DNA of 64,000 bases from Candidatus Uhrbacteria bacterium. GTDB lineage: Bacteria; Patescibacteriota; Patescibacteriia; UBA9934; GWF2-40-263. Each line of letters starts with the position of its first letter. The stretch's first letter is position 1. Made by a program: the position numbers and the translations under genes. Below the pieces are notes generated by a model that was given only the letters and a program-made list of their open reading frames with translations, had not been told where the DNA came from and did not search any database. Of the stretch, positions 44,905 through 45,007 are shown one piece after another. The DNA is taken from assembly GCA_016206085.1 (NCBI GenBank), contig JACQSF010000005.1, positions 1,337 to 65,336 of the forward strand, given 5' to 3'.

Positions 44905-45007
44905 AAGTAAGTAATTAAGTAAGTGGTTTAGTGGTTTAGTGGTTTAGTAATTGAGTCATTGAGTTGCTTAATCACTCAATAACTCAATTACTCAATCACT
45001 CAACGAC
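44905..45007. repeat. atpB-atpE spacer built from 8-nt periodic units forming a 17-bp hairpin
   Basis: gtggttta x3 (44923-44946). The arm taattgagtcattgagt (44948-44964) pairs with actcaataactcaatta (44974-44990) at 16 of 17 positions. An NNactcaa 8-mer series continues to about 45010. Confidence 0.65.

Follow-up and report, generated by a model that had tools for sequence, protein, structure and literature searches.

Between atpB and atpE, the genes for subunits a and c of the F0 part of an ATP synthase, lies a spacer that is built from 8-nt repeats and can fold back on itself. The locus raises the question whether this element serves atpE, whose product is the subunit needed in the highest copy number, as the first-pass annotation supposed, or whether it is something more general. 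The window in which it lies, the whole stretch of 64,000 nucleotides that was analysed, comes from a Candidatus Uhrbacteria genome of the CPR (G000; 877 kb, 34 contigs, 83% complete). CPR bacteria are uncultured. The atp operon runs on the minus strand in the order atpI-like, atpB, atpE, followed by atpF, H, A, G, D and C. The features that surround the spacer are the following.

46095-46123, minus strand, promoter-like site TTGACC-17-TACACT (consensus match only)
45836-46123, minus strand, atpI-like gene (ORF list)
45008-45832, minus strand, atpB, F0 subunit a, 274 aa (ORF list; Pfam ATP-synt_A on an identical Logan contig)
44905-45007, minus strand, the whole spacer of 103 nt, one copy of an octamer-array palindrome family
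44686-44904, minus strand, atpE, F0 subunit c, 72 aa (ORF list; Pfam ATP-synt_C)

The start codon of atpE occupies 44902-44904, and the TGA stop of atpB (45008-45010) sits in the predicted fold at the base of the outer helix of the spacer element. A terminator-like hairpin at 46171-46192 is found upstream of the promoter-like site, at which the operon transcript carrying the spacer likely begins; the spacer would thus be internal to this transcript. A consensus scan of the atpB-atpE spacer for promoters and terminators gave no match. The window sequence, spacer included, recurs with 100% identity in two Logan assemblies with AtpE, over 982 and 2654 nt, and since both represent the same strain they are uninformative on length polymorphism.

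The architecture of the spacer is regular. Tandem Repeats Finder detects arrays of period 8 at 44922-44948 (AGTGGTTT, 3.4 copies, 100% matches), at 44946-44964 and at 44970-45003 (AATCACTC, 4.2 copies), and the sequence agrees exactly with the parse into plus-strand 8-mers made in the first-pass annotation. Read on either strand, the spacer has the form 5'-(AGTNNTTG)n-loop-(CAANNACT)n-3', and its GC content is 32%. On the sense strand the atpB stop is followed by G/U-rich units, a loop, complementary units, three AAACCACU copies and a tail that leads to the AUG, as listed here.

44974-45010, minus strand, 5' arm of the sense strand, about 4.5 G/U-rich units of the GAGTNNTT type from the atpB stop
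44965-44973, minus strand, apical loop of 9 nt (minimum-free-energy fold)
44946-44964, minus strand, sense-strand 3' arm of the 19-bp inner helix, ACUCAAUGACUCAAUUACU (inverted-repeat search and fold)
44922-44948, minus strand, three perfect tandem copies of AAACCACU in the sense direction (Tandem Repeats Finder), unpaired in the predicted fold
44905-44956, minus strand, G-free leader, the 52 nt that precede the atpE AUG, lacking G in the sense direction

In the G-free leader U stands at -1, and the 8-nt phase, with units ending in ACU, reaches -2. The tandem copies at 44922-44948 look like the result of recent slippage; in line with the earlier suggestion of slipped-strand expansion, the spacer contains three perfect AAACCACT units on the plus strand. 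In the DNA, 16 of 17 positions of the arms 44948-44964 and 44974-44990 are complementary, which bears out the near-perfect 17-bp hairpin first noticed at this site. The single mismatch turns into a G-U pair when the sense (minus) strand is read, and the inverted repeat extends to arms of 35 nt with 86% complementarity. For minus-strand RNA from 44895 to 45015 the predicted fold has a free energy of -39 kcal/mol (z = -7.25) against -18.1 +/- 2.9 kcal/mol for dinucleotide shuffles, none of which (0 of 200) matched the real fold.

How specific this pairing is was examined by permuting the order of the 3'-arm units. Permuted orders fold as well as the real one in most family copies, and 6.5% of the permutations do so for the atp spacer. 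Because permuted orders often fold equally well, most of the pairing is generic complementarity of two unit types, and in the fold predictions it tolerates register shifts. A mirror-specific palindrome or copy-specific compensatory evolution was rejected on the same result. When coding flanks are included, the G-poor arm of family copies is often paired nearly to the AUG, with a mean unpaired probability of 0.16-0.70 over positions -20 to -1. The value for atpE is 0.25 over the last 20 nt before the AUG; much of this stretch is paired in the prediction, and the leader may consequently not be free.

Several familiar classes do not fit the spacer. It is no intrinsic terminator, as a GC-rich stem with a U tract is missing and the stem is followed by ACUAAACC repeats; the contrast with the GC-rich hairpins nearby had rightly been pointed out before. 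Equally correct was the statement that this is not a CRISPR array, which has repeats of about 24-48 nt and unique spacers, whereas the units here measure 8 nt and are contiguous. A search of the spacer against Rfam at a permissive threshold gave only sub-threshold matches to miRNA-like hairpins, none of them above 28.5 bits, whereas the gathering scores are 54-99.

What the first reading overlooked is that the spacer is one copy of a dispersed family. We define this family here by the unit AGTSRTTG and its complement CAAYSACT, with the constant positions A-G-T-x-x-T-T-G and runs of at least three units; the scan used the pattern AGTNNTTN and its complement. The atp spacer belongs to it, with 6 + 5 units at C8:46258-46344 of G000, which is 44922-45008 of the window. 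A search of the genome with the spacer and the unit scan together give five loci in G000, the atpB-atpE copy and four more.

C30:78376-78446, in the groES leader, after a CIRCE element and ahead of the start codon
C27:34730-34792, in the gap that separates a pgsA-like gene from the divergent gene for a 707-aa membrane protein
C27:10684-10715, in front of a gene of the exonuclease-like kind
C26:370-401, a single G-poor arm, in frame within an SMC-like gene

Family matches occur in 18 of the 72 genomes of the taxonomic family, and the number per genome reaches at least 12; G085 and G087 are rich in arrays. Several arrays in relatives are located at contig ends (L040, L046, L061, L138). Assemblies seem to break at arrays, so that the copy numbers of the family are probably underestimated. 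About 65 loci were read across the taxonomic family, some 30 hairpin copies among them. In all of the roughly 30 hairpin copies the G-rich arm is 5' and the G-poor arm 3', a polarity that is the same on both strands. Where single arms lie in coding sequences the sense strand is always the G-poor one, which is forced because the opposite strand has a TGA in every unit. A single G-poor arm is present at the same position of a class I tRNA-synthetase-like gene (about 790 aa, DRWILSRLN) in two genera (L044 in G001:C70 and L056 in G085:C3). In the literature on CPR together with Shine-Dalgarno or leaderless genes, no report of such octamer arrays was found.

The age of the G000 copies follows from a comparison with the nearest species, G002, G004 and G001, whose AtpB is 85-88% identical to that of G000. 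Their groES genes have a leader of about 40 nt after the CIRCE element, the array being present only in G000, and their divergent pgsA-like pair is separated by a gap of 26 nt, which in G000 is about 60 nt longer. Their atpB-atpE spacers measure 37-38 nt and contain neither a hairpin nor a G. The first-pass annotation had proposed to compare the spacer in relatives, and took its absence from close relatives, along with a lack of effect on atpE transcript boundaries, as an argument against a role; these short, hairpin-free spacers provide the first part of that argument. As three sisters lack the hairpin at all three loci, the hairpin copies of G000 are species-specific. Copies turn over fast between species, and the atp copy is a recent gain which took the place of the G-free leader of 37-38 nt that the sisters still keep. 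Comparison of the filled sites with the empty ones at atp, groES and pgsA shows that the old leader was replaced, with no clear target-site duplication.

The way in which copies arise can be judged from their similarity. The pgsA copy of G000 and a copy at a dnaN-livJ-like junction in G002 are about 90% identical over 65 nt, with one stretch of 26/26. Orthology of this G002 copy (L038) with the G000 pgsA copy was rejected, since the pgsA orthologue of G002 is elsewhere and has no array. Near-identical copies at non-orthologous loci of G000 and G002 thus point to copying between sites. At the murG junction, the orthologous copies of G081 and G082 differ in unit number. The sister atpB-atpE leader already has R-like units such as AACTCAAT, and hence the 3' arm could have grown locally instead of by insertion. 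No mobilising enzyme for the octamer family was found in G000, where two Y1-transposase genes are bracketed by unrelated repeats.

C27:47140-47463 (L065), Y1-transposase gene (PF01797), between inverted repeats of 27-30 nt beginning TGGGGTCAGGTC
C28:36658-36975 (L066), Y1-transposase gene (PF01797), between inverted repeats of 27-30 nt beginning TGGGGTCAGGTC

Mobilisation of the RAYT/IS200 type was rejected because the inverted repeats flanking both genes are GC-rich and unrelated to the octamers. The transposase genes with their inverted repeats are a candidate for a separate mobile element.

Other short-period repeats occur in the same genome. A second octamer family, with CCACCTNN as the unit on the G-poor strand, has about 10 loci in G000, among them the following.

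4709-4736 and 51103-51129 of the window, second-family loci
C10:36730, C15:25091, C19:21135, C27:50676, C28:21513, C28:45497 and C29:46856 of G000, second-family loci

The copy at C28:21513-21544 is in frame in a LigA-like gene and encodes PPTY repeats, and in the relative G012 the unit of this second family makes up the atpE leader. G000 also has heptamer tandem arrays at C25:822-895, C25:1427-1519, C16:2209-2631 and C4:8035-9047, with units including CCTTGTA (10.6 copies), CGACTCA (8.9 copies) and GACTCAC (4.3 copies); some of these pair as hairpins.

The copies of the first family have a characteristic position. Measured over 30 hairpin copies, the median distance is 4 nt from the upstream stop codon, which the element often overlaps, and about 11 nt from the start codon, where many copies lie at 0-9 nt. 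With small gaps on both sides the element fills the stop-start (or, between divergent genes, start-start) junction. A preference for the start side over the stop side was rejected, because arrays are equally near or nearer to the upstream stop. In one set of loci an outward start codon is found within 26 nt of the hairpin in 13 of 14 copies; in a second set, with a search window of 45 nt, this holds for 15 of 16 copies, most of them at 0-23 nt. The atp copy likewise fills its junction, the 5' arm beginning at the atpB stop and the G-poor units reaching -2 of atpE. Among the G000 copies, a reading of the sequences revealed no constant phase of the units relative to the AUG.

The neighbouring genes are of many kinds. 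Genes downstream of copies encode EF-G, L7/L12, DnaK, enolase, NusA, NusB, NrdR, MurG and Pth, in two genomes thioredoxin, and also glycosyltransferases, transporters and others. Some copies are in divergent promoter regions, in the groES 5' UTR or within coding sequences. At groES the copy is placed between a TTGACA-N17 promoter with CIRCE element and the AUG, an arrangement that suggests a location in the transcribed region. This promoter and the CIRCE element (TTAGCACTC-N9-GACTGCTAGC; C30:78447-78530, L067) are both conserved across the taxonomic family. In other genera, arrays of their own units are present between CIRCE and the groES AUG (L083, L090, L093).

In view of the above, we favour, with a probability of roughly 0.55, the reading that the atp spacer is a recently gained, REP- or STRR-like dispersed repeat specific to Uhrbacteria, which is tolerated and possibly acts as a generic intercistronic hairpin. 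Arrays would grow through slippage of units and spread through some copy-paste process, and they would persist at stop-start junctions as nearly harmless there. Within the atp operon transcript the element is predicted to zip into a long A/U-rich hairpin starting from the atpB stop, and a G-free, weakly structured leader would stay before the atpE AUG. Such a leader is what an organism without Shine-Dalgarno enrichment seems to need for initiation. A generic effect of the spacer on mRNA or translation is possible. Any function is probably one that is common to intercistronic hairpins, for example as a barrier or processing site that would set segmental mRNA stability or, alternatively, by holding the stop codon near the next start so that translation is coupled. 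The spacer is probably not tuned to atpE stoichiometry. Several copies precede very highly expressed genes, as expected of a functional leader, and this counts against the reading of a tolerated repeat, as do the failure to find a mobilising enzyme and the possible local growth of the 3' arm.

A second reading, which we consider possible but doubtful, gives the element a direct function as a coupling or processing module for internal cistrons that are translated without Shine-Dalgarno use or a detectable S1 protein. In the coupling version a terminating ribosome would melt the base of the hairpin and thereby expose or adjoin the next AUG (termination-reinitiation), and in the processing version RNase III would cut the long stem to release a short G-free leader. 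The geometry of the operon is consistent with such a module. All five atp junctions of at least 70 nt carry hairpins, with predicted energies of -30 to -73 kcal/mol, which begin at a distance of 0-10 nt from the stop and extend to 4-26 nt from the next AUG, and the family copies share this span from stop to start. At the atpE-F, atpA-G, atpG-D and atpD-C junctions (38989-44685) the hairpin ends 4-16 nt before the AUG. Some strong hairpin is also kept in the atpB-atpE spacer of 21 of 30 genomes, with unrelated sequences and in four of the 21 built of other 7-8-nt units, so that a hairpin there may be selected although its sequence is not conserved. A gene for RNase III is present in G000, and a precedent is provided by the Correia elements of Neisseria, which are bound by RNase III and either cleaved or protected (PMC2649163).

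The translation context is also compatible with a module of this kind. Upstream regions in G000 display no Shine-Dalgarno enrichment, with 16% Shine-Dalgarno-like sites against 12% in a control region, and T is found at -1 in 57-61% of the starts. Over the whole genome, the maximum of -10-like hexamers falls at -15/-14 from the ATG, and many transcripts would accordingly be leaderless or nearly so. An altered anti-Shine-Dalgarno sequence that would pair with the units was rejected, since five relatives have a canonical 16S 3' tail (GGATCACCTCCTTT); the 16S rRNA gene itself is absent from the G000 assembly. A single S1-domain match was obtained in G000, in an 810-aa ORF on C7, and no rpsA-like multi-S1 protein or match to a cold-shock domain (CSD) was seen in this genome, which is 83% complete; the assembly being incomplete, these absences are weak. 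Local absence of structure has been published as a route to Shine-Dalgarno-independent initiation (PMC3121790). Against a module, the three closest species are without the hairpin at three loci, the pairing is not mirror-specific, and copies occur in divergent promoters, in the groES 5' UTR and in coding sequences, where coupling cannot apply. Nor can the lack of S1 be taken as established with only 83% of the genome at hand.

A combination of both ideas is about as tentative. The arrays could be a self-propagating repeat that was recruited as a general device for coupling and as a source of leaders, serving as ribosome-loading leaders of non-leaderless genes. In this case the hairpin may bridge a stop codon and the next start, or be cut by RNase III, and internal cistrons such as atpE may be translated in this way.

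That the spacer is a translation enhancer or mRNA stabiliser specific to atpE, supplying the high stoichiometry of subunit c, we regard as improbable. The spacer lies directly upstream of atpE, and its G-free tail, rich in A, C and U, resembles known unstructured or C/A-rich enhancers. In E. coli, an intercistronic translational enhancer of atpE was reportedly described by McCarthy et al. in 1985. Like the spacer, it is located at the atpB-atpE junction and consists of a sequence that is poor in G, weakly structured and placed before the start. However, the E. coli enhancer works with a Shine-Dalgarno site and is neither a repeat nor a hairpin, whereas the spacer has no Shine-Dalgarno site. 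Membership of this class was rejected for this reason and because the array is not conserved even within the genus. In 30 genomes the last 25 nt of the atpE leader contain 5.9% G, T is at -1 in 29 of the 30, and none of the 30 atpB-atpE spacers has a Shine-Dalgarno site. The conserved feature at atpB-atpE is this G-poor tail and not the octamer array. The link to the high copy number of atpE drawn in the first-pass annotation is therefore not supported: hairpin and array are missing in the three closest species, hairpins also precede atpG and atpC, which encode single-copy subunits, and the AGTSRTTG/CAAYSACT units precede many unrelated genes.

A function at the level of DNA appears still less probable. 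By analogy, the arrays could bind a protein of the ribbon-helix-helix type, one dimer per 8 bp, and act as operators or nucleoid sites. MetJ, which binds 8-bp metboxes, is a precedent for a protein array on 8-bp repeats. In plasmid TP228's ParG operator and parH centromere, ACTC boxes in direct and inverted orientation alternate with A/T-rich spacers of 4 bp (PMC3130281). The octamer arrays match this layout, each unit consisting of ACTC and a 4-nt A/T-rich spacer, direct and inverted, and binding would account for an 8-bp period for which other explanations are difficult to find. Moreover, if an organism is largely leaderless, the region abutting a start is promoter territory. The TP228 sites, however, form a single locus beside parFG, whereas the octamer copies are dispersed, many of them between the cistrons of an operon or within a coding sequence. 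The analogous arrays of other Uhrbacteria lineages are made of quite different 7-9-nt units, and single arms near starts mostly have the G-poor strand as sense, which also argues against this reading. A search for ParG (PF09274) gave no match in 72 genomes, and none in the control genomes either, and is hence uninformative.

Purely local slipped-strand expansion of an 8-mer, unrelated to other loci, could draw on the three perfect tandem units and the R-like units of the sister leader, but is highly improbable in view of a unit consensus and arm polarity shared by many loci in many genomes, the near-identical 65-nt copy at a non-orthologous locus, and the fact that slippage alone makes no complementary arm.

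With the dispersed, tolerated repeat as the preferred reading, the result is deflating for atpE: a hairpin that is young and dispensable at this gene is no basis for assuming a stoichiometry device. More interest attaches to the family to which the spacer belongs. Here the lack of Shine-Dalgarno enrichment, signs of widespread leaderless transcripts and G-free arms placed against start codons are seen together, and the starts concerned include those of EF-G, L7/L12, DnaK, GroES and enolase. Should the arrays be important for expression, they would offer a concrete, testable handle on initiation and operon processing in CPR. If they do not, they are a clean case of a compact genome filtering where selfish repeats survive.

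Several known systems resemble the octamer arrays in part. REP/BIME and REPIN elements are mobilised by RAYT transposases. Like the octamers, REP/BIME elements are dispersed extragenic palindromes, often intercistronic and with rapid turnover between species, and in transcripts they form hairpins able to change segmental mRNA stability or translation upstream. A REP, however, is a single imperfect palindrome with a conserved GTAG end, whereas the octamer family consists of tandem-unit arrays, with a low copy number of five in G000. Membership of the REP/REPIN class was rejected because the arms are tandem octamers and the PF01797 genes are flanked by the unrelated 27-30-nt inverted repeats. 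The STRR (short tandemly repeated repetitive) heptamers of heterocystous cyanobacteria, which Mazel et al. are said to have described in 1990, are likewise dispersed intergenic tandem arrays of one lineage-specific unit family. As far as the accounts of them go, they differ in being heptamers, in having no complementary arm pairs and in no tight abutment to starts being reported. Correia elements (CREE/NEMIS) of Neisseria share with the octamers that they are small non-coding repeats adjoining genes and form long hairpins; they are co-transcribed, RNase III can cut or protect them, and the expression of neighbouring genes is changed in this way (PMC2649163). Correia elements are marked by a core, by defined terminal inverted repeats and by duplication of a TA target; such ends or duplications were not seen in the octamers.

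The nearest verified published analogue is formed by the TAACTGA heptamer repeats of marine Beggiatoaceae, some Cyanobacteria and Bacteroidetes (MacGregor 2015, PMC4679880). Both are short tandem intergenic units, located mostly a few nt upstream of start codons, both precede mixed genes including those of ribosomal proteins, and in both some copies are within ORFs (PMC4679880). For the TAACTGA repeats a role in translation was proposed, not demonstrated (PMC4679880). The octamer arrays agree with the TAACTGA and STRR repeats in that they end a few nt from start codons lacking ribosome-binding sites, and depart from these direct heptamer arrays in their period of 8 and their paired inverted arms. 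The TAACTGA units are 7 nt long, have another sequence and occur in another host phylum. They are almost always direct, with 169 direct sets against one indirect set (PMC4679880), whereas the intergenic octamer copies are mostly inverted double arrays and form long hairpins. It is these complementary runs of octamers that set the family apart from TAACTGA, REP/REPIN, STRR and Correia elements alike.
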